A DNA stretch of 64,000 nucleotides from an uncultured Verrucomicrobiae bacterium (GTDB lineage: Bacteria; Verrucomicrobiota; Verrucomicrobiia; Palsa-1439), in contig CAWEWF010000001.1 of the NCBI GenBank assembly GCA_963812605.1, forward strand, positions 160,001 through 224,000, read 5' to 3'. Below the pieces are notes generated by a model, which was given only the letters and a program-made list of their open reading frames with translations, ran no database searches and was not told where the DNA came from. Below are positions 4,975-22,222 of the stretch, piece by piece (the stretch's first letter is position 1; each line of letters starts with the position of its first letter). The translations under genes and the position numbers were made by a program.

Positions 4975-5015
<41 letters not shown>

Positions 5016-5043
5016 TCAATGTCTTACAAAAGATTTTCAACCC

Positions 5044-5067: not shown

Positions 5068-5101
5068 GACGCCCGGGACGGGCGCTCTTGTATAATGCTC
5101 C

Positions 5102-5230
5102 GTGAAGCCCGGAACTGTCAAACGCGGGGACTGGAAACAGGCGTTAAAGCGCGTCGGGGACAACCTGTATCGTTCCGACGCGACTGAAATCTACTATGCC
5201 ATCTTCAAGCGGAACGGCAAGCAGATACCC
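5102..5230 (+). pseudogene. tyrosine integrase N-terminal fragment
   Basis: KRVGDNLYRSDATEIYYAIFKRNGKQI resembles integrase N-terminal domains; TATAAT just upstream; no catalytic domain follows. Confidence 0.65.
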
Positions 5231-5428
5231 AAGCTGGATCTCCTCGGCGGTCCGCGCGTTGGCGATGGCTGCTCGCCCACCGCGTCCACCGGCCGTTTGT
5301 CCTTCTTGGTCATCCCGGCCACGAACCGCCTGCTGGCCGCATTCGGGACCGGAATCGAGGTGTCGCCAGACTGAGGGGCACGGATTCAAATTGCGCGGCG
5401 ATGCGGGGGCGGATTGTCCAAGGCGGAA

Positions 5429-6025: not shown

Positions 6026-6114
6026 AACGAGAAGTCTACTGACCTGCGTCTACGTTGGCAAGACATCGAACGAACCACGTCACCGTACGGGCGACAACGC
6101 GTTCGGGCGCTTCG

Positions 6115-6813: not shown

Positions 6814-6972
6814 ATCCTTTCGATGCTTCCATGCTTGGCCCGATTCCATAGAATGTCCTGCAATCTCCTGCTCCCAGGAAGTACGGACGCTATCGGGCGC
6901 CTCGGGCTTCGTGATCGGCTTCAAAGTGCTGCGAAGTCGCACATCACTTCGCGTCTGCACAATGAGCTTATT

Positions 6973-7510
6973 TCATTTGGGGACTCTTTCCGGTATGGTT
7001 ATAAAGCGTCGCTCATTTTTCGCCCCTTGCATACCCGTTTCCGTTTCACGACGGCGGCGGAGTTTCCCAACCAATCCGTCCGCCGAAAACTTGCCGGGGC
7101 CAAAAACCAGCACGAGCACCGAGGTCAGTAGAAACAAGAATTCGTCCGCGGACAAAAAGGCATCGGGTTTGCTAAAGATGTTCTTCACGGTGTCCGTATC
7201 CGCCGTGAGATAGGCCACGATCATGACGCAAATCAACGGAATCGTCATGATGCGCGACCCCAATCCAAGAAGTAGCAGGAGGCCGCCAAAGCATTCCGTA
7301 CTGCCAGCCAATGCGGCGTTCAGTTTGGGCATGGGGATGTGCAGCGTCGCGAAGTAGCCGGCGATCTTCTCCAAATGCATCAGTTTGCCCTTGCCTGTTT
7401 GGAAGAATTGCCAGCCGAAATACAGCCGCAAGGATCAACAGCAACGGCGATTGGAGCTTCGCGAGCAAGCCCAAATAAATGTCATACATACCAGCCAACT
7501 TTGCTTTCAT
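6973..7510 (-). CDS. DoxX family membrane protein, frameshift near 7433
   Basis: LQSPLLLI (one frame) continues as RLYFGWQFFQTGKGKL..GPGKFSAD (another frame). Confidence 0.85.
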
Positions 7511-7776
7511 GTGTTTGCCTCCTGAAGGATTACATGAATGTGGTTATGCGTTCCGCGCGCGCGTCTCATCGAGAAAGGCTCTGCTGTTCCGGTCTCGGCT
7601 TTGCACCACTCGCGTAGGAAAGTTGCCAGTTCACGTTCGGACCGGCGGATGCGTGTCACAATGAGTCGCTCGGGATCATCGCGAAATATCTCCTTCGGTG
7701 CTTCGTCCCATCCGAAACTCTCGTACAATCTTGAAGTGTAATTGGCGTGATCATGGGTCACTTCCTGCCTGGACAT
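7507..7776 (-). CDS. hypothetical protein coupled to the sigma gene
   Basis: TGATG overlap with the sigma stop and ATGA overlap with doxX start. Confidence 0.5.
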   Translation of the reverse strand: MSRQEVTHDHANYTSRLYESFGWDEAPKEIFRDDPERLIVTRIRRSERELATFLREWCKAETGTAEPFSMRRARGTHNHIHVILQEANT

Positions 7777-8477
7777 CAGGTGGCGCAAAACTCCGTGAAC
7801 GCCGCCGCGGTTTCGGCAAATCGAGGGCGGGCCTCGATGTACGGTGACAATTCTTTCCGCAAGATCAGCCGCGCCCGGTGGAGCCGGCTCTTCACGGCTG
7901 GAACACCTTCGTGTGTAAGTTCCGCGATCGCGGCCAGGGAAAGTCCCTCCACGTCCGCCAGGATCACGGTTGTGCGGTGAGATTCGGACAGCGAGTCGAT
8001 CGCTCGGCGCATGTGTTCGCCCAGTTCACTCTGCAGTAACGCCGCATCAGGGCGTTCATCATGATTGTCTTGCACGATGAAATCGGGGTTTTCAAAGCTA
8101 TCGAGGGAAACGAACTGGCGCAAACCCCGCTGTTTGCGAAGTTGCATCAATGCGGCGTTTGCGGTGACTCGATACAGCCATGTCCCCAACTTGGCCTGGC
8201 CTCGATACGTGTCGACCTTGTTCCAGACGGCGATGAGGGCGTCCTGTACGACTTCTCGCGCGCCATCCTCGCTCCGCATAAAACGCATGGCCACGCTGTA
8301 CATCATGGAGCCGTGTCGTTCCAACAAATCGGGCAAAGCCGTCTTGTCGCGCATCCTGAGCCGACCTGCCAGTGCGCCATCATTATCGACGGATGGTTTT
8401 GATTCGACACGCTCCATGAACATGGCTCCCTGTATCTTTGGAACTTTCTCGACGGATTTGATGGTGCTACCTGCCAT
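7776..8477 (-). CDS. ECF sigma factor (A)
   Basis: AREVVQDALIAVW, TWLYRVTANAAL, AVKSRLHRARL. Confidence 0.92.
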   Translation of the reverse strand: MAGSTIKSVEKVPKIQGAMFMERVESKPSVDNDGALAGRLRMRDKTALPDLLERHGSMMYSVAMRFMRSEDGAREVVQDALIAVWNKVDTYRGQAKLGTWLYRVTANAALMQLRKQRGLRQFVSLDSFENPDFIVQDNHDERPDAALLQSELGEHMRRAIDSLSESHRTTVILADVEGLSLAAIAELTHEGVPAVKSRLHRARLILRKELSPYIEARPRFAETAAAFTEFCAT

Positions 8478-8491
8478 TGCGGTGTTCCTTG

Positions 8492-8794
8492 TTACATCGG
8501 CGCGAGTTCAACCGCTGTTGTGCGCACCGCAAGAATCGCGACCCTGGTATTGTAGAGCGCCACCGAAGCCGGTTGCACTTCAGGCGGAATAACTCTCTGG
8601 CGAACCCCCAGCAATGAAATCTTTGCAGATTGGTCCCGGGGAGACTCTGTCGGTGCTGGCGACGCAGTCTCGGTCACGGAGAACCCGATCAATGCCGTCC
8701 GTGTGTTATAACACATAGCCTCGCGCGCCTGGGTTGTCCGGCTCACTGCACCAAAAGCCAGACCTGCAACTATGATCAAGATTGAGCGTTTCAT
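8492..8794 (-). CDS. small secreted hypothetical protein
   Basis: Signal peptide MKRSILIIVAGLAFGA; strong SD AAGGAG. Confidence 0.6.
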   Translation of the reverse strand: MKRSILIIVAGLAFGAVSRTTQAREAMCYNTRTALIGFSVTETASPAPTESPRDQSAKISLLGVRQRVIPPEVQPASVALYNTRVAILAVRTTAVELAPM

Positions 8795-8837
8795 TTTGTT
8801 CTCCTTTGTGGTTTTGGGTGATTCATATGCTCGGAGA

Positions 8838-8866
8838 TTGGTCGGTGAGTCCGCGCGAACCTTACA
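8838..8866 (-). promoter_or_regulatory. ECF-type promoter copy 1
   Basis: TGTAAG-N16-CGACCAA upstream of the 8794 operon. Confidence 0.7.
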
Positions 8867-9073
8867 GTCTTTGCTTCATATGTTTCACACGGCTGGCAAC
8901 CAGCGCAGCGTGTTCGCGGGCAATCAGGAAGACGCCCGCCACCATAGTTAACAATTGTTAAAAGCAGGGTGCGGCGGTGACGATTTTCGGTTTGCTTCAG
9001 CCAGCGTACAGGCTTAGCCTAGGCGTGTGGTCGGCTTGTCAGGCAACATCCCCATGAACAGGCACTTCTACTG

Positions 9074-11086
9074 GTGGAGAATGGTGTGTCAATGTACTGG
9101 GCGCACTGCATCTCCGGCACTGCCATGAGAAGAAAATCTCTCGCGAGAAACGAATCTAACGTCGGACCGGGCGAAAGCCGGAGCGCCGAGGATTTGCTGC
9201 GTTCCATTGCGGAAGGCACGGCGGCCGTAACCGGGACGGGGTTCTTTCGCTCCCTGGTCGAGCACGTCGCGACGGGCCTGAATGTGCACTTCGTGTTTAT
9301 CGCCGAATGCCTGCCCAACTTACGCGCTCGTTCCCTGGCGGTCTGGGCGGATGGAAAGTTCGGGGCCGATTTTGAATACGATTTGCCCGGCACTCCTTGC
9401 TTTGAGGTGACCGAAGGCCGCACGTGTCATTATCCGGACCACCTTCCGGAGCTATTCCCAAAAGGCAAAGCCATGATCGACTTGGGGATCCTGAGCTTTC
9501 TCGGTGTCCCGGTACGCGATTCCTTTCAACGTGTCGTTGGCCACCTGGTCATCATGGACGACAAGCCCATGCCGCGGGATCCGATCATTCTACCGGTCAT
9601 AGAGGTTTTTGCGGCTCGGGCCGGTGTGGAACTCGAGCGTGCGCGGGCTTTCAATGAACTGCATCGGCTCCATGAGGAGAGCGAGGAGCGCTTCCGCGAT
9701 CTGTTCGACGAGGCCCCCATTGCCTATGTGCACGAAGGCCTGGATTCTCGTTTTATTCGAGCAAACCGCGCCGCAATGAGGATTCTGGGAATCACTCCCG
9801 AGGAGGTTGCCGGCACATACGGTAAGTCGTTCGCGCCCGATACGCCCGATGCCCAACGGCGTATGCGCGAGGCATTCGAGTCAATCGGCCACGGGACGGA
9901 CACCAGCGGGATCGTGCTGGAACTGCGCCGTAAGGACAACGGGAAGCCGATTTGGGTTCAATGGTGGTCGAGGCCCGATCCGGGTGGGAGCTACACTCGC
10001 ACGATGCTCATCGATATCACGGAACAAGTGCTGATGGAGAAGGAGAAGGCGCGACTCGAGGCACAGAACAAATATTTGCAGGAGGAGATCCGGGCCGAAC
10101 ACAACTTTACCGAGATCGTTGGCAACAGCCCGAAACTGCGAGCCGTGCTTCAGCAGGTTGAGCAGGTCGCATCGACCGATTCCACCGCGCTGATCTATGG
10201 TGAGACTGGCACGGGCAAGGAACTCGTCGCCCGCGCCATCCACAATCGCAGCCCCCGCAAAGAACGACCGCTCGTCAAGGTGAACTGCGGGGCGATTTCC
10301 GCAGGTCTGGTCGAGAGCGAACTCTTCGGTCACGTCAAGGGCGCGTTTACGGGCGCGCTTACCAGCCGCGACGGACGCTTTAAGGTCGCCGACGGCGGCA
10401 CAATCTTCCTCGACGAAGTCGGCGAACTGCCCCTGGAAACACAGGTGAAACTGCTGCGGGTGCTGCAAGAGCAGGAGTTTGAGCCGATCGGCAGCGATAA
10501 GTCCGTTCGCGTGGATGTGCGCATCATTGCCGCGACCAGCCGCAATCTTGACGAGATGGTTCGCGCAGGAAAATTCCGCGCAGACCTCCTCTACCGCCTG
10601 AACGTGTTTCCCATTCATGTCCCGCCGCTGCGTGAGCGACAAGGCGATGTGCCCCTGCTGGTGACATTTTTCCTGCAGCGTTTGGCCAAAAAGCTCGGCA
10701 AAAGAGTGACGCAAGTCTCTGAGGAGACAATGCAGCACCTGGTAGCCTATCCGTGGCCCGGCAATATCCGGGAACTGCAGAATGTCATCGAACGCGCTTT
10801 GATTCTCAGTAAGGGGGCTGTCCTCGCGCTTGATCGCGACTTTCAGCCTGCGGTGACAACGTCGTCTTCGCCCGTATCCGCAACATCAAGCCCGGCGACT
10901 TCCGCACCCCCAACTGCTTCCCTCAAAGACGCCGAACAGCGGCACATCGAGTCCGTACTCGCTCAGGCCGGCTGGGTGATCGAAGGCGAGCGCGGCGCGG
11001 CGAAGATGTTGAAACTACACCCGAACACGTTGCGCAGCCGCATGAAAAAGCTCGGAATTCAACGGCCACACGATCCGGCAGCGTAA
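9074..11086 (+). CDS. GAF-PAS-AAA+-HTH sigma54-dependent activator (bEBP)
   Basis: GETGTGKE, ESELFGHVKGAFTGA, FLDEVGE, WPGNIRELQN, C-terminal HTH; start may be a later ATG. Confidence 0.95.
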   Translation: MENGVSMYWAHCISGTAMRRKSLARNESNVGPGESRSAEDLLRSIAEGTAAVTGTGFFRSLVEHVATGLNVHFVFIAECLPNLRARSLAVWADGKFGADFEYDLPGTPCFEVTEGRTCHYPDHLPELFPKGKAMIDLGILSFLGVPVRDSFQRVVGHLVIMDDKPMPRDPIILPVIEVFAARAGVELERARAFNELHRLHEESEERFRDLFDEAPIAYVHEGLDSRFIRANRAAMRILGITPEEVAGTYGKSFAPDTPDAQRRMREAFESIGHGTDTSGIVLELRRKDNGKPIWVQWWSRPDPGGSYTRTMLIDITEQVLMEKEKARLEAQNKYLQEEIRAEHNFTEIVGNSPKLRAVLQQVEQVASTDSTALIYGETGTGKELVARAIHNRSPRKERPLVKVNCGAISAGLVESELFGHVKGAFTGALTSRDGRFKVADGGTIFLDEVGELPLETQVKLLRVLQEQEFEPIGSDKSVRVDVRIIAATSRNLDEMVRAGKFRADLLYRLNVFPIHVPPLRERQGDVPLLVTFFLQRLAKKLGKRVTQVSEETMQHLVAYPWPGNIRELQNVIERALILSKGAVLALDRDFQPAVTTSSSPVSATSSPATSAPPTASLKDAEQRHIESVLAQAGWVIEGERGAAKMLKLHPNTLRSRMKKLGIQRPHDPAA

Positions 11087-11093
11087 TGGATCG

Positions 11094-11363
11094 TCAATTC
11101 TTGCCTGCGGACTTGAGTTGCTCGTTGAGAAATGGCGAACAACCCCTTATCGACACGCTCCGTCGGCGCAAATCCAGCAACAGCGCCACTCCCTTTTTAT
11201 CCGCAAATGTTGCCTCAGTAACATCAAGGGTAAGCAGACGCCCCTGATTCAGAAGTTCCTCAATCGTCTTCTGCAACTCCTCCACCCACGGGCCAACGAT
11301 CTGGCCCTCAAGGCGAAGCGTCACGGCTGGTTCGTCGGATTCAGCACTGGAAATCCGTAGCAT
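11094..11363 (-). CDS. STAS-like protein
   Basis: TLRLEGQIVGPWVEEL, LDVTEATFADKKGVALL. Confidence 0.8.
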   Translation of the reverse strand: MLRISSAESDEPAVTLRLEGQIVGPWVEELQKTIEELLNQGRLLTLDVTEATFADKKGVALLLDLRRRSVSIRGCSPFLNEQLKSAGKN

Positions 11364-11368
11364 ATCCC

Positions 11369-11962
11369 TTACCCCCTTGATGATCTCTTGTCATGGTCCT
11401 TGCCCCAAGTTGGCGCAAGCGCTTTGCGCAATTGTGTGCGAGCGCGATGGAGCATCACCCATAGATTACTTTCCGAGATGTTGAGCGTGGCGCAAATCTC
11501 GCTCCCGGAACATTCCTCGATCTCATACAGTTGAAACGCCTGTGCGATGCGCGGCGGCAGGTTACCCAGCGCCAATTCGAGCGCCGCACGAAACTCCTGC
11601 AATTCCATCCGCCGGTCCGGAGTGAGACACTGCGCGGCCGATTCATGCAGCCAGACCAGCGATTCATCCATGTCGTCCACATCAGAGCCCCTATCCCGTC
11701 TGAGGTCTGCGAGTCGTGGATGACGGCACTTGGCTCGCAGACGGTCGCAAATCTTGTGTCGCAGGATACTAACGAGCCAGGTTCGTTCGCTGCACTGGCC
11801 AGCAAAGCGATCGCGTGACTTGAACGCCGCCAAAAAGGTCTCCTGCACCAGATCTTCGGCCTCGCTGGCATCGCGAAGCTGGCCGACGGCAAAATTGAAG
11901 AGAAAATCTCCGTACAAGTCCAGCCAATGGGCAGGGTTTGTACGGGGGGATTTCTCCTTCAC
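11369..11962 (-). CDS. ECF sigma factor (B)
   Basis: AEDLVQETFLAA, ERTWLVSILRHKICD, NLWVMLHRARTQLR; GTG 11962 chosen because it lies downstream of the sigma54 promoter. Confidence 0.92.
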   Translation of the reverse strand: MKEKSPRTNPAHWLDLYGDFLFNFAVGQLRDASEAEDLVQETFLAAFKSRDRFAGQCSERTWLVSILRHKICDRLRAKCRHPRLADLRRDRGSDVDDMDESLVWLHESAAQCLTPDRRMELQEFRAALELALGNLPPRIAQAFQLYEIEECSGSEICATLNISESNLWVMLHRARTQLRKALAPTWGKDHDKRSSRG

Positions 11963-12009
11963 TCCCGGTCTCGCTGTTGCCGTGTTGCTGATCACGAGAA
12001 ATACCCCTT

Positions 12010-12025
12010 TGCAATGGCCGTGCCA
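12010..12025 (-). promoter_or_regulatory. sigma54 -24/-12 promoter
   Basis: TGGCACGGCCATTGCA matches TGGCACG-N4-TTGC(A/T) exactly. Confidence 0.8.
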
Positions 12026-12126
12026 CCATTGCGACGCAAAGTGCGGCACGGCCTTGCAGGGCCGAAATTTATTGGCTTATCAGCCCACGGATTTCTTCGC
12101 GTGGCTTTTCGTTGGTGGTCTTTGCC

Positions 12127-12164
12127 CAACAAGACTTCGTGGCTGCCCACGAAAGGTCGTGGGC
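12127..12164. promoter_or_regulatory. putative bEBP enhancer sites
   Basis: Perfect palindrome GCCCACGA-AAGG-TCGTGGGC (12145-12164) plus a degenerate copy 20 bp away; ~130-160 bp upstream of the predicted +1. Confidence 0.6.
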
Positions 12165-12176
12165 TGGGTGAGTGGG

Positions 12177-12473
12177 TTACGATTCCTTCCCGCTGAGTGA
12201 GCGGCTGATTCGGTCGCGAGCTTCGGGAGAAAGGCCCACGGAATCTGGAGTCTCTGCGTCGGCGGAATGGCTGTGCAGACTGATACGGAGCCGTTTCAAC
12301 TGGCTTTTGTATCGCGAGCACCACGCGCACATCGCGAGGTGGACGCGCAGCGTTACGCGCTCCCGCCATGCGAGCGGGCGCTCTGGCGCTTCGGAGAGTA
12401 TGCGTGTGACTTCGGCACACGGCAGAATGATGCGATGCAGCCAGTTAACAGCTTTCTTGTTCAATGTATTCAC
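12177..12473 (-). CDS. zf-HC2 zinc-binding anti-sigma factor, soluble
   Basis: CAEVTRILS..LRVHLAMCAWCSRY (HxxxCxxC); no TM helix. Confidence 0.88.
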   Translation of the reverse strand: MNTLNKKAVNWLHRIILPCAEVTRILSEAPERPLAWRERVTLRVHLAMCAWCSRYKSQLKRLRISLHSHSADAETPDSVGLSPEARDRISRSLSGKES

Positions 12474-12494
12474 TGTAGTCTCACTTAACGCCCA

Positions 12495-12524
12495 TTAGTC
12501 GCGGCACAGACTCAAGACCTTACA
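12495..12524 (-). promoter_or_regulatory. ECF-type promoter copy 2
   Basis: TGTAAG-N17-CGACTAA upstream of the anti-sigma gene. Confidence 0.7.
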
Positions 12525-12615
12525 ACTCTTTGAAAACGTTGGCCGCTATTCCTTATGCAAGCAGTCGGCCCTGTACTTTCTTAGGACCCAATCGCCATCT
12601 GGCTGCATCCGAACC

Positions 12616-13239
12616 GTGGATGCAACAACAAACGAGGGAAGTGTGCGCCGCAAATTCGCAGCCGTAACAGTAGCCGCGTTGATGGCGACAACAGGGGACA
12701 GCATCCGCCTCGCTGCGGCGCTCCGTCTCGTAAACCAGGATACACAAACGAACGCAGGGGAAATGGAAATCGCTACGTTCGGGGGAGGATGTTTCTGGAA
12801 CTTGGAGGCGGCGTTTCGACAGGTCAAAGGCGTCGCCGATACCGTGGTGGGCTACGCGGTCGGCGCAGGCAAAAGGCCCACGGGCGAAGCCATATGTCGG
12901 CCTCGCACCGATTCTGTTGAAGCGTGCCGCGTTACCTTCGATCCCACGCGGATTACCTACGAGCAATTGGTCAAATACTTCTTTGCGATTCACAATCCGA
13001 CACTCACAGGCGGTGCGGGCCCCTTCGTCGGTTCGCCCGGTCGGCTGATAATCTTCTTCCACAACGCCGAGCAGGAGAGGATTGCCACAGCCGTGATGGA
13101 AAGCCAGGCGCAACCGGAAAACAACCAGCGGTCCCCGCTTGTGCAGGTCCTTTCTGAAAGCGACTTCTGTCGCGCCGATGAGGCTGACCAGCGCTATTTG
13201 GAAAAACAAGGCTTGGCAAACTGTTCTGCGAAACGGTGA
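12616..13239 (+). CDS. msrA: degenerate peptide-methionine (S)-S-oxide reductase
   Basis: FGGGCFW, VTFDP, HNPT retained; several other motifs altered; start uncertain. Confidence 0.75.
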   Translation: MDATTNEGSVRRKFAAVTVAALMATTGDSIRLAAALRLVNQDTQTNAGEMEIATFGGGCFWNLEAAFRQVKGVADTVVGYAVGAGKRPTGEAICRPRTDSVEACRVTFDPTRITYEQLVKYFFAIHNPTLTGGAGPFVGSPGRLIIFFHNAEQERIATAVMESQAQPENNQRSPLVQVLSESDFCRADEADQRYLEKQGLANCSAKR

Positions 13240-13428
13240 GCGCACCGAAACCTGCGTAAGGATTCAATGGGAACATTCAGCTCGCAAACACTATCAGCGG
13301 TAATAAATTGACAATCAACCAACTTCAACGTCCCGCGAGGGTCGCGGGAACACGTCATACGGGAAATGTCGGTCAAAGTCGGAACCCAAAACGAAAAGCG
13401 AACATCACAAAACGTGAGGAACTATTTT

Positions 13429-14175
13429 ATGAGCAATACCACATCAAAAAAACTTGAAGGAAAAATCGCCGTCGTCACCGGCGGCAATTCGGGAATGGGC
13501 CTGGCCACGGCCAAGCGATTCGTGGCGGAAGGCGCGTACGTCTTCATCACCGGTCGCCGCCAAAGGGAACTGGACGCGGCGGTGAAAGAGATCGGCAGCA
13601 ACGTCACGGGCGTTCAGGGCGACATCGCCAACCTCGCCGACATCGACCGTCTTTACGAAACCATCAAAGCAGGCAAGGGCCGGATCGACGTCCTCTTCGC
13701 CAACGCCGGCATCGGCGAGTGGGTCCCCATGGGTTCGATCACGGAAGCGCATTTTGACAAAACCTTTGACGTCAATGTCAAAGGCACGCTCTTCACCGTC
13801 CAGAAAGCCCTGCCCCTGTTCAAGAATGGTGGATCGATCATCATGACCGGCTCCGTCGCAAGCGTGAAGGGATTCCAGAATTTTACCGTCTACAATGCGA
13901 CCAAAGCCGCCATCCGGTCGTTCGCCCGGTCATGGACGACAGACCTAAAAGGCCGAAACATCCGGGTCAACGTGCTGAGTCCGGGCCCGATCGACACGCC
14001 GATTATGGACCCCCTCCCGAAAGACGCCATCGCGCAGATTGTGTCCGTCGTCCCGATGGGCCGCATGGGCACAGCGGACGAAATCGCCAAGGTCGCCGTC
14101 TTCCTGGCATCGGACGATTCCAGCTTTGTCTCCGGCATCGAGCTGTTCGTCGACGGTGGCATCGCGCAAGTTTGA
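13429..14175 (+). CDS. short-chain dehydrogenase/reductase
   Basis: [16 protein letters not shown]. Confidence 0.95.
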
Positions 14176-14346
14176 AGATCAGTAGAAAGGGCCTGGCCGG
14201 ACTCTGAGGTCGGGGTCCCGCTTGTTTGTTTCTGCACCGTAAAACGGCCTTCAAGCCCGTTTACTTCTCACCGTCGGGGCGTAACCGAGTCAAGGCCGGC
14301 AATCGTGGGGGTACGCCCCCCGAAATCATGAGCGCAGGGAAATTTA

Positions 14347-14375
14347 AGTAAGGATTCGACCGCGACCGCGACAAA
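14347..14375 (+). promoter_or_regulatory. ECF-type promoter copy 3
   Basis: AGTAAG-N16-CGACAAA upstream of 14416. Confidence 0.6.
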
Positions 14376-14415
14376 CCATCGGAACAGCTAATTGGCAAAT
14401 AACCTGTGATTTGAC

Positions 14416-14739
14416 ATGAGCATCTGGAATTGGCACCTGTGTAATCTCTTTGGTGGAAACAAGCGTCACGACTTGGAACAAAACAAGTTCAAGTGTCCGG
14501 TCTGTGGCGAGATCGTTCCGGTCGGTGAACTGCGAGCACATGCCGCGACCGACAACCAGCGTTTTCAGGACGGTTTGGTCATCGCCCGGATCAAGCAGGA
14601 TCACCCCGAGTGGGTGGAGGCCGACGGTGCGTGTCCGAAATGCATCCAGTACTACCACCAAAGAGTTGCCGTTGAGAAGATCAAGCCCCACCCCCATCGG
14701 GACGCAGAACTCGGCACACCACCTGGGGCCCGAAGTTGA
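14416..14739 (+). CDS. small Cys/His metal-binding protein
   Basis: CPVC..H and HPEWVEADGACPKC. Confidence 0.65.
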   Translation: MSIWNWHLCNLFGGNKRHDLEQNKFKCPVCGEIVPVGELRAHAATDNQRFQDGLVIARIKQDHPEWVEADGACPKCIQYYHQRVAVEKIKPHPHRDAELGTPPGARS

Positions 14740-14800
14740 CTACATCAACGGCAATGTCCGCAGGAAGCGACGGCACCAATAAGATCGTCGAAAAGACATC

Positions 14801-15556
14801 ATGAAGAACGCGATTCTTTCTCTCCTACTGCTTGGGATGCTAATTGGCGGAGCACGCAACATGGCTTTTGGAGACAACTCTACGGATGAAGCGTTCGCTG
14901 TGGTGGAATTGTTCACATCCGAAGGGTGCTCGAGTTGTCCGCCCGCAGACAAGCTGCTCGCCGAGATTGCTAAAGACGCGAAGGAGAATGGTCGACGCGT
15001 CTTCCCGTTGGAGTATCACGTGGATTATTGGAATTACCTTGGATGGGCTGATCCGTTCAGTTCAGCCGCCTACTCCGATCGCCAGCAGGAGTACTGCCAC
15101 GTCCTTGGTGTGGACCAGATTTACACGCCGCAAATGATTGTGAATGGAAAGGAGGCGTTCGTCGGCTCGGATCGCACTCGTGCGCGTAAAACCGTGAATT
15201 CGGCTCTCTCCCTCCCAGCGAAGGTATCGGTGACGATCCGGGCCATTCCGGATGCCGACGGGTCCAAAATCGAGTATCGGGTTTCCAACACTCCAAAGAA
15301 TGCCTTGGTGTGCGTCGCGGTGGTTGAATCGGATTTGGCCAGTCAGGTGCGCCGTGGCGAAAACGCCGGCCGCACGTTGCCACACACGAATGTTGTTCGG
15401 GAATTCGCGGCTGTAGCACTTGATGGCAGCGGCCTGGGTGGCGTTAGCATCAAGACGAAGCTCTCGGCGCAAGATAAGAACAAGCAGGTCATCGTGTTCA
15501 TTCAAGATCGACGCACGCTGGCGATTCTAGGAGCGGCGAGTGTTGAACCATCCTAG
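14801..15556 (+). CDS. DUF1223 thioredoxin-like exported protein
   Basis: VVELFTSEGCSSCPPAD, HVDYWNYLGWADPF, YTPQ, GENAGRTL. Confidence 0.92.
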   Translation: MKNAILSLLLLGMLIGGARNMAFGDNSTDEAFAVVELFTSEGCSSCPPADKLLAEIAKDAKENGRRVFPLEYHVDYWNYLGWADPFSSAAYSDRQQEYCHVLGVDQIYTPQMIVNGKEAFVGSDRTRARKTVNSALSLPAKVSVTIRAIPDADGSKIEYRVSNTPKNALVCVAVVESDLASQVRRGENAGRTLPHTNVVREFAAVALDGSGLGGVSIKTKLSAQDKNKQVIVFIQDRRTLAILGAASVEPS

Positions 15557-15604
15557 TGCTCCAGCTTGAGCGCCGGTTCGGTTGCTCTGTCCCGATTGTC
15601 GCAC

Positions 15605-15633
15605 TGTAAGGTTTTCCCCGTTTCAGCGACTAA
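15605..15633 (+). promoter_or_regulatory. ECF-type promoter copy 4
   Basis: TGTAAG-N16-CGACTAA upstream of thioredoxin-ccdA. Confidence 0.75.
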
Positions 15634-15690
15634 GTTTGTGACTGACAGCGGGAAGAATGCGAAGGAACCGCAGACCCAAAGGGAAAAATC

Positions 15691-16161
15691 ATGCACGACA
15701 ATTTCGAAATGGAAAATCTGCTGCCCCGGGAAGTTCACGCCGGTAAACAATACCCGATTTGCCATCGCAAAATACTGGGCGGCTGCCTGCTGGCTGTCTT
15801 CGCCGCGGTATTCACCCTCTTCACTGTTGGCGCGGTTTCCGGCGAAATCCAACCCTACGGCGAGACTGCCTTCAAGGCGGCTACGTCCGGGGGAAAAACC
15901 GTGGTGCTCGACTTCCATGCCGACTGGTGCCCCGTCTGTAGAAAGCAGGGACCACTGCTTGAGAGCCTGGCTCAAGAGGACAAGCTCAAGAACGTCGTGG
16001 TGTTGAAAGTGGATTACGACGAAGAAAGGGCGCTCAAGAAGCAGCTCAAAATCCTCAGCCAGTCCACGCTGGTGGTTTTCAAAGGGGAGAAAGAGGTTGC
16101 CCGCGCCACCGGCGTCACGGACAAGGACCAGATTCGTGAACTGATTGAGAAAGGGCTTTGA
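15691..16161 (+). CDS. exported thioredoxin
   Basis: FHADWCPVC; hydrophobic N-terminal segment. Confidence 0.9.
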   Translation: MHDNFEMENLLPREVHAGKQYPICHRKILGGCLLAVFAAVFTLFTVGAVSGEIQPYGETAFKAATSGGKTVVLDFHADWCPVCRKQGPLLESLAQEDKLKNVVVLKVDYDEERALKKQLKILSQSTLVVFKGEKEVARATGVTDKDQIRELIEKGL

Positions 16162-16880
16162 GCATGTCGTCCTTGGTGCTCGCCGTCCTGGCGGGATTGC
16201 TGACTTCCCTCTCGCCATGCGTGATTCCAGTATTGCCTCTGGTGGTAGGGAGCGCCGCCTCGCGTCATCGCCTTGGACCAGTGGCGCTGTGCGCCGGGCT
16301 GGTTGTGTCCTTCAGCGTTCTCGGTGTGGCTGTGGCGCTGGCCGTCAGGGCATTTGGATTCGATCCTGGCACTATCCGGATTGGGGGCGCGGTGCTCTTA
16401 CTATTGTTGGGTGCAGTCTTGCTCGTACCGAGAGCACAGGAGTTTCTTTCCAGCTTGCTCGCGCCCTTCGCATCACTCACGAGCCGCATAGCGCCCCAAG
16501 GAGACCGGGCTGGTCTTACGGGCAATTTTCTTACCGGAATGCTACTCGGCGCAATCTGGAGCCCATGCGCCGGACCGACACTGGGCGCGGCGATCGGTCT
16601 GGCCACGCAGGCGAAGACATCCCTGCAAGGCTTTGTACTCATGTTTGGGTTCGGGAGCGGCGCCAGCCTGCCGTTGCTCGCGGTGGCTTATGGTTCGCGC
16701 ACGCTCTTTCAGAAGAACAAGGGCTGGCTGATCGGGGTATCGGAGAGAATCAAGCCTGTCTTTGGCGCGATTCTCTTGGTGATGTCGGTGGGCGTATTGA
16801 GTGGCTACGACAAGAAGCTCGAATCGGCGGTTCTTCGCCATCTCCCCGATTCATGGGTGGACCTCACGACCCGGTATTGA
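16158..16880 (+). CDS. ccdA: CcdA/DsbD-beta transmembrane electron carrier
   Basis: SLSPCVIPVLP and WSPCAGPTLG. Confidence 0.9.
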   Translation: MSMSSLVLAVLAGLLTSLSPCVIPVLPLVVGSAASRHRLGPVALCAGLVVSFSVLGVAVALAVRAFGFDPGTIRIGGAVLLLLLGAVLLVPRAQEFLSSLLAPFASLTSRIAPQGDRAGLTGNFLTGMLLGAIWSPCAGPTLGAAIGLATQAKTSLQGFVLMFGFGSGASLPLLAVAYGSRTLFQKNKGWLIGVSERIKPVFGAILLVMSVGVLSGYDKKLESAVLRHLPDSWVDLTTRY

Positions 16881-16954
16881 TTGGTCGCACACGTATCTTC
16901 AGAACCCTTAAAGTTCGTTTTGATTTTGCCCCACCCGCCAAAACGTTTATCAAT

Positions 16955-17257
16955 TTAGTGTGGCAATTTGTTGGCGAGCACGTCGAGCTTTTCGATTGAC
17001 GGCGGTTTCGCAAGTAGTTCGGGTGCCTTGGCCATCAAGGCGGCGGCAACCTGACCGGATAAATGCGCCTGACGACCCGCCTCGTCCGGAAATGCATCAA
17101 AAATACCGAAGGTTGACGCTCCAAACCGCACCGCGAACCATGCTGTGGTGGCGGGTTCCTGCTCGACGATGGCCAATCCGCCACGAAGGAATTTCTCGAC
17201 ATCCGTTTCCTTGCCCGGCTTTGCTTCCAATCGAACGAATAATGCGACATTTACCAT
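16955..17257 (-). CDS. ABM-domain (putative quinol) monooxygenase
   Basis: VRLEAKPGKE, FGIFDAFPDEAGRQAHL; SD GGAGG. Confidence 0.88.
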   Translation of the reverse strand: MVNVALFVRLEAKPGKETDVEKFLRGGLAIVEQEPATTAWFAVRFGASTFGIFDAFPDEAGRQAHLSGQVAAALMAKAPELLAKPPSIEKLDVLANKLPH

Positions 17258-17335
17258 TTGGTCCTCCTGCTCCTATGGAGCGTTTTTCTCTCGTTGCGTT
17301 ACCACTGATTTCCACTTTAACTCATCAAATAGCGT

Positions 17336-18313
17336 TCAAAGTGTCGGATACATTTTCGCGACGTAGTTGCCATAGCCGTTGAACGGCTGCGTCTTTACCC
17401 GGTCACCGGTGTCGATCAGACGCTCCGTCGCCTGTGACCAACGTGGATGAGGAACCTTGGGATTGACGTTTGACTCAAATGGGTATTCATCTGGGGCCAG
17501 CGTCTCCCAGAACGTGGTCGGTTGTTTGTCCACGAACTCGATTTTCACGATTGATTTGATGCTCTTGTAGCCGTACTTCCACGGAACCACGAGCCGCAGT
17601 GGCGCGCCGTGCTGTTTGGGCAGCGGTTTGCCGTAAATCCCGCTCGCCATAAGTGTTAGCGGGTGCATTGCTTCATCCAGACGTAAGCCCTCCTGATAGG
17701 GCCAGGGATACTGGGGTGTACTTGCCATGCCGGGTGCTTGATCAGGCCGGTTGAATGTTTCGAAGTGAACGAACTTCGCTTCCGGTTTGGGTATGACCTT
17801 TTCGATGAGCTTGCTCAACGGAAATCCCGTCCATGGTACAATTATCGCCCACGCTTCGACGCAGCGCAGCCGATAGACGCGCTCCTCCAGATCGAACATA
17901 TCGACAAGTTCCATTGAGTCGAGCGTCAGCGGCTTTTCAACCAAGCCGGTAATTTGTAGGGGCCATGGAGCCGGTACGAATCTGCCCACGAAGCGGAATG
18001 CATCCTTGTCGGGCGAAAACTCGTAGAAATTGTTGTAGGTGCTTGCAGCTTTCTCATTCGTGAGTCGCCAGTCGGGACTGAATTCTTGATTTCGCTTCGC
18101 CGGATAACCTTTTGCGGGTATCGTCGGGCCGGTGTCTGCGGAGTTGCTGTCCGATGGTTCGGATCTGCCGCAGCCAAGCAACGTCCCCGCCACCAGGGCT
18201 GCGCCCGCGAAACCGAGTTGCCGCAAGAACTGGCGTCGGTTCAGGAATGCCGCTTCGGGCGTGACTGATCGCTCGGGTAAATGCCACGCCGGTCGATGGA
18301 TGATGTTCGCCAT
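17336..18313 (-). CDS. msrP: periplasmic molybdo-methionine sulfoxide reductase catalytic subunit
   Basis: Tat motif NRRQFL, YNNFYEF, RLRCVEAW, HGAPLRLVVPWKYGYKSIK, HPRWSQATER. Confidence 0.95.
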   Translation of the reverse strand: MANIIHRPAWHLPERSVTPEAAFLNRRQFLRQLGFAGAALVAGTLLGCGRSEPSDSNSADTGPTIPAKGYPAKRNQEFSPDWRLTNEKAASTYNNFYEFSPDKDAFRFVGRFVPAPWPLQITGLVEKPLTLDSMELVDMFDLEERVYRLRCVEAWAIIVPWTGFPLSKLIEKVIPKPEAKFVHFETFNRPDQAPGMASTPQYPWPYQEGLRLDEAMHPLTLMASGIYGKPLPKQHGAPLRLVVPWKYGYKSIKSIVKIEFVDKQPTTFWETLAPDEYPFESNVNPKVPHPRWSQATERLIDTGDRVKTQPFNGYGNYVAKMYPTL

Positions 18314-18319
18314 GGAAAG

Positions 18320-18694
18320 CTACCGCTTCTGACCCAACCAGAGGAACAACATTGGAATGATGCATCCCAACGACAACGATGCCCAGACGAGCCATTTTTT
18401 CGGCTGAAAACGCACCGCCAAGACGACGCCCAATGCCACCGTGACGATCAGTGCGATAGCCATGGCGACGACCAACCCCCGAAACAACGACGGCGAATAG
18501 GCGCTGGCGGACTCAGTCGGGTAAATTTGATCCACGTGCACGGACGTCAGCCGCGCTTTCCAATCGCCTAGGTCGCCCGTTCCCTTGTGCCGGTTCGGAG
18601 TGACAGTTTGATACCAGCCGGTCAGCACAAAGAACAACAGCAGCGGCGCGAAGAAACATCCAAGATACGCGTGCAGACGGCGCAAGGCTTTCAT
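18320..18694 (-). CDS. small PepSY-associated-TM-like membrane protein
   Basis: RRLHAYLGCFFAPLLLFFVLTG N-terminus, later LTSVH, three hydrophobic helices. Confidence 0.75.
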   Translation of the reverse strand: MKALRRLHAYLGCFFAPLLLFFVLTGWYQTVTPNRHKGTGDLGDWKARLTSVHVDQIYPTESASAYSPSLFRGLVVAMAIALIVTVALGVVLAVRFQPKKWLVWASLSLGCIIPMLFLWLGQKR

Positions 18695-18783
18695 GTAGTG
18701 ATCTTCATTCTCAGTGTCTTTGTTGTTTAGGCGTTTATTTCTTGTCGCTGCAATCCCAATTGCACATCACACCAATCTCAGTA

Positions 18784-18812
18784 TTAGTCGGGCTGAGAAA
18801 GAAAACCTTACA
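18784..18812 (-). promoter_or_regulatory. ECF-type promoter copy 5
   Basis: TGTAAG-N16-CGACTAA upstream of the PepSY-TM/msrP operon. Confidence 0.75.
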
Positions 18813-18919
18813 TACTTGTTCTGTGACAGACAGGTGCAAGGAATGCGCTGCTTCGACGACCCAACCGAAAAACTGTCTGGCAGCGTGCAATCGCCGCGCT
18901 ACGTTCCCTGGCCGTCACG

Positions 18920-19076
18920 AGCGGTTGAAGGTGGCAAGCGATGCTTGACACTCGCCTCGCTCCGCTATCTCGACACCGTCGTGAAAATAGAGGGCGTTTG
19001 GCTATTTGCGGAGCGCCTGCTCTACGTCGCTTGGTTGGAGGAGCGAGCATTGGTAAAATGGCAAAGCGCGGTCTAG
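18920..19076 (+). pseudogene. C-terminal remnant of an NTF2/SnoaL-like gene
   Basis: LASLRYLDTVVKIEGVWLFAERLLYVAWLEER with no plausible N-terminal half. Confidence 0.55.
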
Positions 19077-19266
19077 CCCTTCGACAATTACTCGGTATGA
19101 TAACCGACATAGGAGAACTATCATGACCACACCCACGATCCATCGCGAAGCCAGTTGTGGAGGTGACTCGTCCGGAGCCAAGCCGGTGCATGGTTTCTTG
19201 TAGATTCGAGTTCTAACAAGCGAGTCAATCCGGCTTGATGCTCTGACATTCATCGCGCACAGGAAT

Positions 19267-19290
19267 GCTTATCACCCGCACCTGTCACCC
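19267..19290. repeat. arm-type site pair, right end
   Basis: GCTTATCACCCGCACCTGTCACCC, same orientation as 5044-5067. Confidence 0.7.
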
Positions 19291-19427
19291 TTTGGAGAAA
19301 TCTCTGACGATTTCTGATGATCGGTGACAAAAACCCTGCGAACGGCATCGACCGCTATGCCTTATGTTGCAACGCATGGATGACCACTGGTGAAGTCTGA
19401 TTATAGCGGTGAAATTTTTTCCTTGCT

Positions 19428-19467
<40 letters not shown>

Positions 19468-19509
19468 CACTTATATTTTGCTGGCATGAACAACCATTGC
19501 GCTTGCTGT

Positions 19510-19537
19510 ATTTTATGTCCGCACTGGTTTATTGCAA
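19510..19537 (-). promoter_or_regulatory. possible sigma70 promoter facing the tRNA half
   Basis: TTGCAA-N16-TAAAAT. Confidence 0.4.
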
Positions 19538-19557
19538 TGGCTGGGGTGTTTTTCACC

Positions 19558-19689
19558 ATGAAAGTCACCCCAACGACCCACAAACATCGAAACTCGTCCA
19601 TTGTTGGCGACTGTCTCGATCGTTCAAACCGCACCGACTTTTACCGTGCGATTTTCCAACGCGACGGCAAGCAAGCCAAGCGCAGCCTC
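19558..19689 (+). pseudogene. second, more decayed integrase N-terminal fragment
   Basis: IVGDCLDRSNRTDFYRAIFQRDGKQAKRSL aligns with the 5102 fragment. Confidence 0.6.
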
Positions 19690-21266
19690 TACTCCTCAGC
19701 TGCGGCGCGCGCCAGTCGTGCTCCGATGGCCCCGTGGAGGACGCCCGTCACCACCAGTGTTCCCGCCAAAATAAAAAGCATCTCCACATCCTGCCCTCCC
19801 GGGCTCCGCATGAAAATCAATGAAATGGGCATGACCAGAAAGACCCCGCCCACGTACTGAATCGCCACCGCCAGCGGCAATGCGCCCCGTTTCATTACCA
19901 AAGACAGATACGCTGTCAGATGTAGGAACAAGATGTATTGGCTGACAGAAATGGCGAGAAACATGAGCCCTTCCGGATGGCTCGCCATCCCATCAAGAAA
20001 CTGGGAAAACTCTTTCGGTATCAGCGTGAGGCCAGCCAAACAATACAGCAGGTAGGGCGTGACCCCGGGAACGGAAGCGAAAACCTTCCGGTAAGCGATC
20101 TCTCTCACGGAAAATGGCAGCAGCACGAGCGATGAGAGCGTTTTCCACCGCACTTCGCTCTTGAAAACGCGCGACGCGTCAAGGGCCAGGCTGATGGCCG
20201 TGACTGCCAGTGATGATATCACCAGGAAGCCACCCAAAACTTCTTTCGGCGAACCTGCCTGACGCAACCAAAATCCCTTGGCGAAACAAGCGGCGGCCGC
20301 GCCGAATATCAGGAACTTCAAGGCCAACCCCCGAACGCCGCCGCCAACGAATCGAAATTCCCTCCACGCCACGGCTCCCAGGTCGTGGACCCCCTCCGGC
20401 ACACGAGCACTTCGCCTCCTGCGAAGCATTACGATTCCACGCGCAGGAGCATCCTCATGCTGGTTCCGTGTGCAGGGCTCGAATGCAACCCAAGCCAGCA
20501 GGAAGAAACCGATGCCAATCACGACATTGCTGATCACCTGAAAGCCAACGGGACCCTCGGCGAAGCCGGTTCGCAAAATCGCCGATAGCCGTGACCACGC
20601 GGACACACCGGTCGTGAACTCAAGGGACCGAATGAACACCGCGCGCCAGCCGCTGGTTGCCACGAACACGCCGGCGGCTATCGCGTCCCTGAACGCGCTC
20701 AGAATCGCCGACGGCAAGACAAATAGAATCCACACCGTCACCCCCGTCATGAGGGCGGCGACTGCGGTTCGTCGAAATACGACCGAATTGAACAAGGCAA
20801 TGTTGCAGAGCAGGAACACGTAGGCCAGCAACGTGCAATACCCGGCGGCGATCTGCCGGATGCTCACCCCGCCCAAGGTGACCGCGAGCAGTGTGAATGG
20901 CACTTGCGCCAGCAATAACATGCCCGCGCCCACCAGGCGGCTCGTGGATTTTCCCAGCAGAATTGACAAGGCGTTGAGGTCGGTCATTCGCAGCAACCCC
21001 AACATCATCTCCTCTTTCTCTTCCGTGATGGCCGACGCGAAGTAACTCAGCCCCGCCAGTGAAATGAACACAACATTGATCCACAGCACTCCCTGGAACA
21101 ATTGCAATCCTGGCGCGCTGGAGAAGCCGTAGCGTGATGTTTGCTCGACCTCAAACAATGAGATCAATAGGATGGCCAACAATGCCGCGCGCGTCCCGAA
21201 AACCGACGGCGTGCGCGCATCGACGCGCAGGGAACGCTCGAACAATGCCAGCAGCGGAATCCTCAT
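19689..21266 (-). CDS. ABC-2-type permease
   Basis: AITEEKEEMMLGLLRMTDL, LGGVS; many TM helices, internal two-fold repeat. Confidence 0.85.
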   Translation of the reverse strand: MRIPLLALFERSLRVDARTPSVFGTRAALLAILLISLFEVEQTSRYGFSSAPGLQLFQGVLWINVVFISLAGLSYFASAITEEKEEMMLGLLRMTDLNALSILLGKSTSRLVGAGMLLLAQVPFTLLAVTLGGVSIRQIAAGYCTLLAYVFLLCNIALFNSVVFRRTAVAALMTGVTVWILFVLPSAILSAFRDAIAAGVFVATSGWRAVFIRSLEFTTGVSAWSRLSAILRTGFAEGPVGFQVISNVVIGIGFFLLAWVAFEPCTRNQHEDAPARGIVMLRRRRSARVPEGVHDLGAVAWREFRFVGGGVRGLALKFLIFGAAAACFAKGFWLRQAGSPKEVLGGFLVISSLAVTAISLALDASRVFKSEVRWKTLSSLVLLPFSVREIAYRKVFASVPGVTPYLLYCLAGLTLIPKEFSQFLDGMASHPEGLMFLAISVSQYILFLHLTAYLSLVMKRGALPLAVAIQYVGGVFLVMPISLIFMRSPGGQDVEMLFILAGTLVVTGVLHGAIGARLARAAAEE

Positions 21267-22222
21267 GACCCAAGGACCGGGGGCACCCCCGGCTCCGTCA
21301 AATCCAGGAACGCTTGATTCAGATGCCGCACGTCCTCCTGGAAGGACACTACCTGGCCGCCGGTCTCCAGCACCATCCGCAAGACTGCATTCGGATCCGT
21401 CTGTTTCCGCTGAAAACTGACGCGATACCGGGGCTCGCCCTCCGTCCTGGTCACGCTGGTCACCCCCGCCATTTGACGCAGTGACTGTTCCGTAAGTGTC
21501 TGTTCAACCGCCAGCACGAGTAGGTAATCCGCTTCCTGGCCACTGCGCTGTTCCAACCCGCTCATCGGACCGCTGTATTTCACCAGGCCCCGGTCGAGAA
21601 CCGTCACGCTATCGCAAAGCAGTGCCAGTTCGCTAAGAATGTGCGAGCTGATAAAGATCGTCTTCCCCATGCGCCTCAACTCCCGCAGGATCTCCATCAA
21701 TTCTATGCGCGCCCGCGGATCCAATCCGCTGGCGGGTTCGTCGAGGAGCAACAATTCCGGATCGTGGACCAACACCCGCGCCAGGCTCACTCGCTGTTGC
21801 ATCCCGCGGGAAAGGCCCTTGATAAAATCGTTCCGCCGCCCGTCCATGTCCGTCAACGTCAGCACATCCTGGATGATTTTCACGCGTGCCGGGGCGAGTT
21901 GCCCGTACGCCGCCGCAAAGAAGTCGAGGTACTCCTGCACGGTCATCTGGCGGTACATGCTGAAATGGTCGGGCATGAACCCAATGCGCCGCCGCAATTG
22001 TTTGAAGTTGGCGACGATGTCCTTGCCAAACACCCGCACCTGACCGTGTTGCGGTCGCAGCAACGTCGCCAGAATCTTGAGCGTGGTCGTTTTGCCCGCG
22101 CCGTTCGGCCCCACGAACCCGTGAATGGAGCCGTTGTTGACCTCGAATGTCACGCCCTGGAGCGCCTGCTGGCGCTTGTAAGAATGGCGCAGATCAATAA
22201 TCTCGATCACCGGGTCGCTCAT
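21263..22222 (-). CDS. ABC transporter ATPase
   Basis: GPNGAGKT, LSRGM, LLDEPASGLDP. Confidence 0.95.
   Translation of the reverse strand: MSDPVIEIIDLRHSYKRQQALQGVTFEVNNGSIHGFVGPNGAGKTTTLKILATLLRPQHGQVRVFGKDIVANFKQLRRRIGFMPDHFSMYRQMTVQEYLDFFAAAYGQLAPARVKIIQDVLTLTDMDGRRNDFIKGLSRGMQQRVSLARVLVHDPELLLLDEPASGLDPRARIELMEILRELRRMGKTIFISSHILSELALLCDSVTVLDRGLVKYSGPMSGLEQRSGQEADYLLVLAVEQTLTEQSLRQMAGVTSVTRTEGEPRYRVSFQRKQTDPNAVLRMVLETGGQVVSFQEDVRHLNQAFLDLTEPGVPPVLGS

Follow-up and report, generated by a model that had tools for sequence, protein, structure and literature searches.

A three-helix membrane protein as a candidate redox partner of MsrP in Verrucomicrobia without MsrQ

A 64,000-nucleotide stretch from an uncultured Verrucomicrobiae bacterium of the lineage Palsa-1439 (assembly GCA_963812605.1, contig CAWEWF010000001.1, positions 160,001 to 224,000), which we call the window in its entirety, encodes on its minus strand a 124-residue, three-helix membrane protein (18320..18694, hereafter the small gene and small protein) and, directly behind it, the 325-residue catalytic subunit of the periplasmic molybdopterin methionine-sulfoxide reductase MsrP (17336..18313). 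MsrP repairs oxidised methionines in envelope proteins; in Escherichia coli, the MsrPQ (YedYZ) system couples this periplasmic molybdoenzyme to a membrane flavohaemoprotein, MsrQ. MsrQ has been described as a membrane protein that specifically passes electrons to MsrP, a molybdoenzyme (PMC12525009). Here, we posit with moderate confidence that the small protein acts as the membrane redox partner of MsrP in those Verrucomicrobia that do not have MsrQ, i.e. as its non-orthologous replacement. Genome comparisons support the view that the small protein and MsrP are linked by a dedicated function, and that the small protein and MsrQ are mutually exclusive. An earlier note on this DNA, made from its letters and open reading frames, had suggested such a non-orthologous partner: co-occurrence across genomes, adjacency in three bacterial orders and the exclusivity with MsrQ speak for that suggestion, whereas the adjacency on which it was built turned out to be exceptional, and distant paralogs are found without MsrP.

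The two genes lie head to tail, with 6 nucleotides between the stop codon of the small gene and the ATG of msrP; both the open reading frame list and the inspected sequence agree with the earlier note on this arrangement. The small gene is single-copy in the window genome. The protein encoded behind it is a full MsrP, scoring 412.7 bits against NCBIfam NF003767 (cut-off 207) and 122.6 bits against PF00174, with a twin-arginine translocation (Tat) signal at residues 24-46 (TIGR01409, 19.6 bits; cut-off 16.7). In an alignment of 20 MsrPs, R26 and R27 are invariant, as is C151 in all 20 sequences, the conserved cysteine of the molybdopterin-binding domain, which we take to be the molybdenum ligand. 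A search with PF01794 (Ferric_reduct, the domain of MsrQ), which was positive in E. coli and four other control genomes, found no match in the whole 4.17-Mb window assembly (15 contigs, 89.96% complete); thus the absence of msrQ that had been reported for the window extends to the rest of the assembly. No RNA data sets were found for positions 17300-18950, the nine matches all being soil-metagenome DNA contigs with a word share of at most 0.32, and an Rfam scan of 18600-19800 gave no match at an expect value (E) of 0.1 or below.

Whole-genome surveys point to an association of the small gene with MsrP. First, a scan of one genome per species recovered 23 loci (L002-L024) with relatives 46-77% identical to the small protein, and MsrP is present above the cut-off in 22 of these 23 genomes, the 23rd carrying msrP in two pieces. 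Second, in a sample of 151 genomes from the order of genome G467, with the small gene called at E<=1e-10 and MsrP above the NF003767 cut-off, the two occur in 60 and 61 genomes, respectively: 54 have both, six the small gene only, seven MsrP only and 84 neither (odds ratio about 108, uncorrected for kinship of the genomes). Third, among 47 genomes of the window's own order, MsrP exceeds the cut-off in G000 alone, where it adjoins the single close copy of the small gene in this order; the other matches to the small-protein profile in this order are a 40%-identical 323-residue fusion (G035) and a partial match (G015), and PF01794 is above cut-off in one of the 47.

The adjacency of the pair recurs in six genomes from three orders and in both gene orders. 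In the closest relative of the window locus, L002, the small gene is again followed after 6 nucleotides by msrP, with different flanks on both sides. This second pair sits in a metal-stress rather than a thiol-stress context (3983-4787 and 6424-9325 of that locus), with a CpxP/Spy-like 'Metal_resist' gene on one side and, on the other, a MerR regulator beside a gene for a 798-residue, apparently metal-transporting P-type ATPase (named by eye). In G199, a closed, 99% complete genome from another order, the arrangement is reversed, msrP being followed after 18 nucleotides by an ortholog of the small gene encoding 146 residues, between amidase-like and glycosylase-like frames (named by eye). A search of the 104 genomes of that order with the small-protein profile gave 29 loci in 23 genomes, and msrP lies directly upstream of the small gene (tblastn) in four of these genomes: G199, G622 (family f15), and G672 and G674 (family f83). 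None of the last three, G622, G672 and G674, has a PF01794 match.

The relationship of the small gene to MsrQ can be followed in two samples. In the 151 genomes, PF01794 matches occur in 28. The two best-scoring, in G510 and G479 (68.7 and 63.2 bits; frames of 212 and 221 residues), are the only MsrQ-sized ones, and both of these genomes have MsrP and lack the small gene. In G510, the PF01794 protein of 206 residues is encoded 10 nucleotides downstream of msrP; in G479, msrP and the PF01794 gene each lie at a contig end. The remaining matches are in longer frames (194-770 residues, most of about 320-560), found in nine of the 54 genomes with both genes and 17 of the 84 with neither. We observed that these longer PF01794 proteins do not follow the presence of MsrP, and the one that was examined (L064 1345-2334, in G467) is a 329-residue Ferric_reduct-Rieske fusion rather than an MsrQ. 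Among the genomes of the 23 small-gene loci, six have a PF01794 match, which is never on the msrP contig. In a sample of 401 genomes from across the phylum, each at least 85% complete, MsrP is present in ten. In two of them, G000 and G199, the small gene adjoins msrP and PF01794 is absent. In six others (G091, G106, G169, G313, G337 and G439), a PF01794 gene lies directly downstream of msrP on the same strand and there is no small-gene ortholog, G337 showing only a weak partial match to the small-protein profile (E 3.6e-5, positions 2-28). In the last two, G204 (L087) and G336 (L086), msrP is an orphan: neither msrQ nor the small gene lies beside it, and a long PF01794 protein is encoded elsewhere. 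Taken together, the small-gene ortholog is found in none of the eight genomes that combine msrP with an MsrQ-sized gene (directly downstream in seven, and in G479 with both genes at contig ends), which is the exclusivity that the earlier note had suggested surveying.

MsrP itself shows two features that touch on its partner. After the Tat signal, the window protein has a lipobox-like L-L-G-C (residues 40-48); a G-C pair occurs at this position in seven of the 20 aligned MsrPs (window, L048, L051, L054, L058, L061 and L086) and A-C in that of L087, which suggests from the alignment that MsrP is lipid-anchored in part of this clade. At the other end, uncut MsrPs with an adjacent msrQ (G510, G091, G106, G169, G313, G337 and G439) align to the last NF003767 position, 320, and those from small-gene genomes stop at positions 312-318; going by these alignments, the C-terminal tail may co-vary with the type of partner. 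In 20 fetched msrP loci, the neighbors are variable and there is no adjacent membrane partner other than the small gene in L048 (in the L002 genome). As an aside, a bifunctional NAD(P)H-hydrate repair gene (YjeF_N and Carb_kinase) starts at most 75 nucleotides downstream of msrP in seven of these 20 loci (L046, at 2452-3873, L047, L051, L052, L054, L057 and L063).

The small gene is clearly a real conserved gene, judging from the family to which its product belongs. Among 737 candidates, clustered at 90% identity, we recovered 653 relatives at E<=0.001, nearly all of them 124-127 residues long; the few named members are labeled Verrucomicrobia, and clustering at 50% identity leaves 361 clusters. 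In an alignment of 60 members, His8, Pro17, Gly26, His53, Gly89 and Gly110 are invariant and Arg5 is kept in 53. The two histidines belong to the motifs RRLHAYLG and LTSVH, which the earlier note had read correctly from the translation. The AlphaFold2 model (predicted local distance difference test score (pLDDT) 85.6, predicted template-modeling score 0.75) has three long helices (2-31, 69-96 and 100-121), in agreement with the three transmembrane segments counted earlier, and two short helices within the loop 32-68. Because of the counts of positive and negative charges at the N-terminus (+3/0), the long loop (+4/-4) and the short loop (+3/0), the N-terminus and short loop are predicted to be cytoplasmic, and the 37-residue loop with His53 periplasmic.

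Sequence profiles place this family near two groups of haem-b membrane proteins. No Pfam or NCBIfam family matches the small protein above its curated threshold. When the 60 members were scanned one by one, PF03929 (PepSY_TM) was matched at E<=1 by 51 (best 1.1e-5), PF01292 (cytochrome b561) by 38 (best 6e-7) and PF16357 (PepSY_TM_like_2) by 24 (best 1.9e-6). The window protein itself aligns through residues 5-30 with positions 178-203 of PF03929, at 12.4 bits (cut-off 28.8), and scores 18 bits against PF01292 (cut-off 30.1). At E<=1, the small protein gives no PF01794 match, nor is this domain one of the 25 families that recur most among the matches of the 60 members, and Pfam scans gave no match to a PepSY domain in the 37-residue loop. 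The nearest clusters in the ESM Atlas are verrucomicrobial and are automatically labeled 'PepSY-associated TM helix domain protein family' (scores 0.97 and 0.96). Searches with the monomer model gave no Foldseek match in the PDB at E<=0.001 and only generic helical bundles in a wide VIA-align comparison (best Z 6.5), both uninformative for a three-helix protein.

Variant forms also belong to the wider family: they have C-terminal repeat domains, which match ankyrin-like families weakly, a periplasmic loop enlarged by long insertions, or an asparaginase-like domain fused to them (L028 898-1869 in G035, P0132, P0136, P0137, P0141, P0147, P0201 and P0202); G035 has one of these variants and no MsrP. 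A small-protein tree pairs the window protein with that of L002 (support 99/96) within a group that also holds, at low resolution, genes linked to a LysM-protein gene, and the G035 fusion falls far outside. As judged from this tree, the msrP-adjacent small genes are orthologs of the LysM-linked ones and do not form a separate paralog. Two apparent fusions were rejected: P0271, in which residues 1-97 of a close relative run into MsrP at about residue 74 of the latter, is known from one sequence that is full of errors and has no contig, and P0272, which joins LysM to the small protein, looks like a frameshifted read-through.

How might so small a protein carry electrons to MsrP? In the mechanism that we propose, His8 would lie where helix 1 meets the cytoplasm and His53 in the loop on the periplasmic side, with the short basic stretch that joins helices 2 and 3 facing the cytoplasm. 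A pair of chains would jointly hold two b-type haems, one at either membrane face, and electrons from the quinol pool or from a cytoplasmic donor would cross the membrane via both haems and then reach the molybdenum center of the periplasmic, possibly lipid-anchored, MsrP. In the window genome, the pair would be driven by a promoter motif of the extracytoplasmic function (ECF) type in common with a thioredoxin-CcdA unit. As each chain has one invariant histidine per face, a homodimer might reproduce the ligand set of FoxB, which, according to excerpts of its structural description, is a single-chain, four-helix bundle whose two b haems sit at the edges of the bilayer, coordinated by conserved transmembrane histidines, with Arg10 binding the haem propionates (10.1101/2021.01.28.428567). 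By analogy, the small protein could be a homodimer with its two b haems between His8/His8' and His53/His53', i.e. the smallest transmembrane electron wire known, and the physiological reductant of MsrP where MsrQ was never present or has been lost; we offer this fuller picture tentatively, considering it possible and, as a whole, rather less than probable. A complex predicted from a pair of small-protein chains, two haems and residues 62-325 of MsrP scored 0.40 (runs 0.50, 0.35 and 0.40), the best of three controls reaching 0.00, with a partner pLDDT of at least 89 and at least 69% of contacts shared between runs. The mark used for such predictions was passed by 116 of 157 solved complexes, as against 2 of 215 mismatched pairs, and at scores of 0.60 or lower by only 18 of the 157 and by both mismatches; since custom alignments and a riding ligand fall outside this calibration, we take the result as weak support and count it neither way.

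Several observations weigh against a role of the small protein as partner of MsrP. The window assembly is only 90% complete, and an msrQ could sit in the missing part. Related genomes are not independent, and the overlap of 54 genomes in the 151-genome sample could stem from a few evolutionary events; the same sample has 13 discordant genomes (six with the small gene only and seven with MsrP only), and five of the MsrP-only genomes are also without PF01794, a second search in four of these five again finding none. Distant paralogs exist in genomes without MsrP or away from msrP (G035, G015 and G367), and in the order of G199 all loci other than the four msrP-adjacent ones (25 of 29) hold paralogs of 32-57% identity in varied contexts; because these are divergent paralogs, we limit the claim to the orthologous subfamily rather than to the wider family. 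On the side of haem binding, every match of the family to the haem-protein families falls below the curated or gathering thresholds, and a profile search of PDB sequences found no relative, with nothing below E 0.18. The label 'PepSY-TM-like' given in the earlier note is therefore favored by the consistency of the matches across members and weakened by their all being sub-threshold. Gene order, too, tells against the link, in that msrP adjoins the small gene (tblastn) in only one of the 23 loci, L002, the closest relative. Our first reading, that the linkage was not conserved and the proposal hence refuted, was drawn from this figure; it was dropped and reversed after the whole-genome surveys described above, which among other things show MsrP in all 23 genomes. 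The linkage of homologs to msrP that the earlier note had asked for thus fails for gene order and holds for genomes.

The strongest of the alternatives, which we regard as unlikely, is that the small protein works in the envelope independently of MsrP, perhaps in concert with the LysM protein, with co-occurrence reflecting shared ancestry and the adjacencies being accidents of rearrangement. In 21 of the 23 loci, a LysM-protein gene lies immediately upstream of the small gene on the same strand, which could point to such a function, and this predominance stands beside the single case of adjacency to msrP. The two loci without it are L002 and L014, the upstream side of which is cut by a contig end. 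This upstream gene encodes about 240 residues, and five of six products scanned exceed the Pfam LysM cut-off, that of L004 scoring 17 bits against 20.9. Further upstream, some of these loci have prmC and a gene of the 5-enolpyruvylshikimate-3-phosphate (EPSP)-synthase family; downstream follow a 169-residue open reading frame, a frame of about 84 residues (read by eye as ribosomal protein L31) and prfA. The occurrence of paralogs without MsrP fits this alternative as well. So does a tree of the LysM proteins, which did not yield several independent losses and is compatible with a single origin of the split between genomes with both genes and with neither: the maximum-likelihood tree has four changes, of which the well-supported branches force one, and the labels on it are not clustered (51-57 of 500 shuffles were as low). 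Against it stands the fate of the LysM gene where both other genes are missing. We ran a LysM-protein profile on ten of the genomes with neither gene, excluding G486 (no match), G477 (weak match) and G487 (contig ending 240 nucleotides after the gene). None of the seven remaining loci has a small-gene homolog within 1.5 kb downstream of LysM (tblastn with five diverse queries, E<=0.01), and in three of them LysM is directly followed by the usual downstream genes (the 169-residue frame, or L31 and release factor 1). Thus, LysM is kept in seven of seven loci that have lost or never had the small gene and MsrP, and the small gene therefore tracks MsrP rather than LysM. Further, accidents of rearrangement do not sit well with an adjacency found in both gene orders, in three bacterial orders and between different flanks, nor does shared ancestry alone with the sole MsrP genome among the 47 of the window's order holding the sole close copy of the small gene, adjacent to msrP. 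That the small-gene ortholog was found in none of the eight genomes that pair msrP with an MsrQ-sized gene argues in the same direction.

Less probable still is that the small protein serves MsrP as a dock or as a helper in its export or maturation, with electrons coming from another carrier. Co-occurrence and adjacency would fit any dedicated partner, and the G-C at the lipobox-like position in seven of 20 MsrPs (A-C in L087) suggests membrane attachment of the enzyme. Against it stand the consistent, if weak, matches of the family to two haem-b membrane families, and the exclusivity with MsrQ, an electron carrier, argues for the same job. Electron transfer by the small protein thus remains the function that we favor over such an accessory one.

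The earlier note had named a co-regulated CcdA/thioredoxin pair as another possible route to MsrP. The genes concerned are those for a membrane-anchored thioredoxin (15691-16161, plus strand; PF00085) and a CcdA/DsbD-type thiol transporter (16158-16880, plus strand; PF02683). That this unit reduces MsrP, the small protein being irrelevant, is in our estimate very improbable: although it has its promoter motif in common with the small gene-msrP unit, the donor known for MsrP, a molybdoenzyme, is a membrane haem protein (PMC12525009), a more natural client of an exported thioredoxin would be the MsrA with an N-terminal hydrophobic segment that is encoded in the same segment (12616..13239, plus strand; PF01625, 133.5 bits), no ccdA or trx was recognized by eye, with no family scan, among open reading frames of at least 100 residues in the 3.9-kb locus of the G199 pair, homologs of the window CcdA and thioredoxin surround the small gene in none of the 23 loci (tblastn, L002-L024), and none was seen by eye in the heads of the frames around msrP in L044-L063. 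We consider trx-ccdA to be probably a separate thiol route that would serve the exported MsrA rather than MsrP.

The motif in question is a bipartite element resembling an ECF-type promoter, made up of TGTAAGGTTTTC, 10 nucleotides and CGACTAA, at 18784..18812 on the minus strand upstream of the small gene. The same 12-mer recurs at 15605..15616 on the plus strand upstream of trx-ccdA, there followed by CGACTAA after 11 nucleotides, which supports the shared promoter motif described earlier; the second half-site and its spacing were read by eye in both cases. The degenerate core GTAAGGWTTY occurs four times in the window, against 0.27 expected and with none of 100 shuffles reaching four. All four copies (13256, 14348 and 15606 on the plus strand and 18802 on the minus strand) lie upstream of genes within 13.2-18.8 kb, namely those for a short-chain dehydrogenase/reductase (SDR) and a zinc-finger-like frame, trx-ccdA, and the small gene with msrP. 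By eye, a CGAC/CGCA-type element follows each 10-mer after about 10-18 nucleotides. From the sequence pattern, this set is probably the regulon of one of two ECF sigma factors encoded nearby (7776-8477 and 11369-12049).

These genes belong to a segment bounded by a perfect 40-nucleotide direct repeat on the plus strand, with a left copy at 4976..5015 and a right copy at 19428..19467 (100% identity, spacing 14452 nucleotides). The segment between them, 5016-19427, holds in order DUF4760, an AhpC/TSA peroxiredoxin, DoxX, the two ECF sigma factors, a sigma-54 activator, MsrA, SDR, the small zinc-finger-like protein, DUF1223, thioredoxin, CcdA, a 100-residue frame, MsrP and the small gene. By eye, the repeat reads, in reverse complement, as the 5' half of a tRNA-like sequence, and ARAGORN found no intact tRNA in the window. 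Each repeat copy is followed by a short coding remnant, for which Pfam found nothing and which we presume to resemble the N-terminus of an integrase. In 1-kb bins, the G+C content is 0.52-0.60 at 5-20 kb (0.54-0.58 at 11-19 kb) and 0.575-0.634 at 20-30 kb. At the DNA level, the other 17 genomes of the genus have next to nothing of 14800-21300 in common with the window except for 262 bp (19428-19689, comprising the tRNA half and the remnant upstream), which is 81-84% identical in nine of them and recurs in the window genome itself at C1:137459-137720, its first 40 nucleotides being 100% identical in many places. The 14.4-kb block between the repeats is probably a decayed integrated element by these signs, and, because the genus genomes share so little of this region, the pair of small gene and msrP probably belongs to an accessory, horizontally acquired oxidative-stress segment.

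If the small protein is indeed the partner of MsrP, a whole order of soil Verrucomicrobia would run this enzyme with a different and far smaller membrane component than MsrQ, and an unnamed family of 653 clusters at 90% identity, for which there is no Pfam model, would gain a testable function. It would also show how three helices per chain can suffice for a membrane wire with two haems, and would offer a minimal module by which periplasmic enzymes could be wired to the membrane. Should the two-haem dimer in particular be true, the small protein would amount to a free-standing half-unit of the PepSY_TM reductases, and the distant paralogs with other neighbors might then represent a general class of minimal membrane proteins that donate electrons to periplasmic enzymes. 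Among the titles and openings of abstracts inspected in a literature search, and in the passages cited here, no paper links a PepSY-like protein to MsrP or describes the pairing.

In terms of known systems, the small protein shares with the PepSY_TM reductases (FoxB, FpvG and CrpH; PF03929) an N-terminal helix of the form Arg-x-x-His ... Gly ... Thr/Ser-Gly and is predicted to have one conserved histidine on each membrane face, a single chain supplying only one possible haem ligand per face; FoxB binds its two b haems through such histidines. It differs from them in matching their profile below threshold, in having no PepSY domain and in constituting one half-unit, such that a dimer would be needed. 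According to the CrpH paper, all the PepSY_TM members compared there have at least four transmembrane segments; three-helix PepSY-like proteins have, in turn, been proposed as transmembrane electron carriers by Meheust et al., 2021 (PMC8238504). The known PepSY_TM members reduce metal chelates rather than a partner enzyme, and the excerpts of the PepSY literature consulted hold no link to MsrP. A similar comparison can be made with the prokaryotic cytochrome b561 (PF01292, Ni_hydr_CYTB), likewise a haem-b family with transmembrane histidines: it has four helices, as opposed to the three of the small protein, the match of which to this family is sub-threshold. MsrQ has six helices and four haem-ligating histidines; unlike it, the small protein is without PF01794 and has three helices, two invariant histidines and 124 residues, as opposed to about 200. 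In further distinction from the E. coli MsrPQ system, the small gene is mostly encoded away from msrP. The parallels with that system are nevertheless close where the two genes meet: MsrP is a full family member with a Tat signal, the gene for a small membrane protein stands directly beside msrP, and in G199, G622, G672 and G674 it occupies the very downstream slot that msrQ holds in the canonical msrPQ operons.

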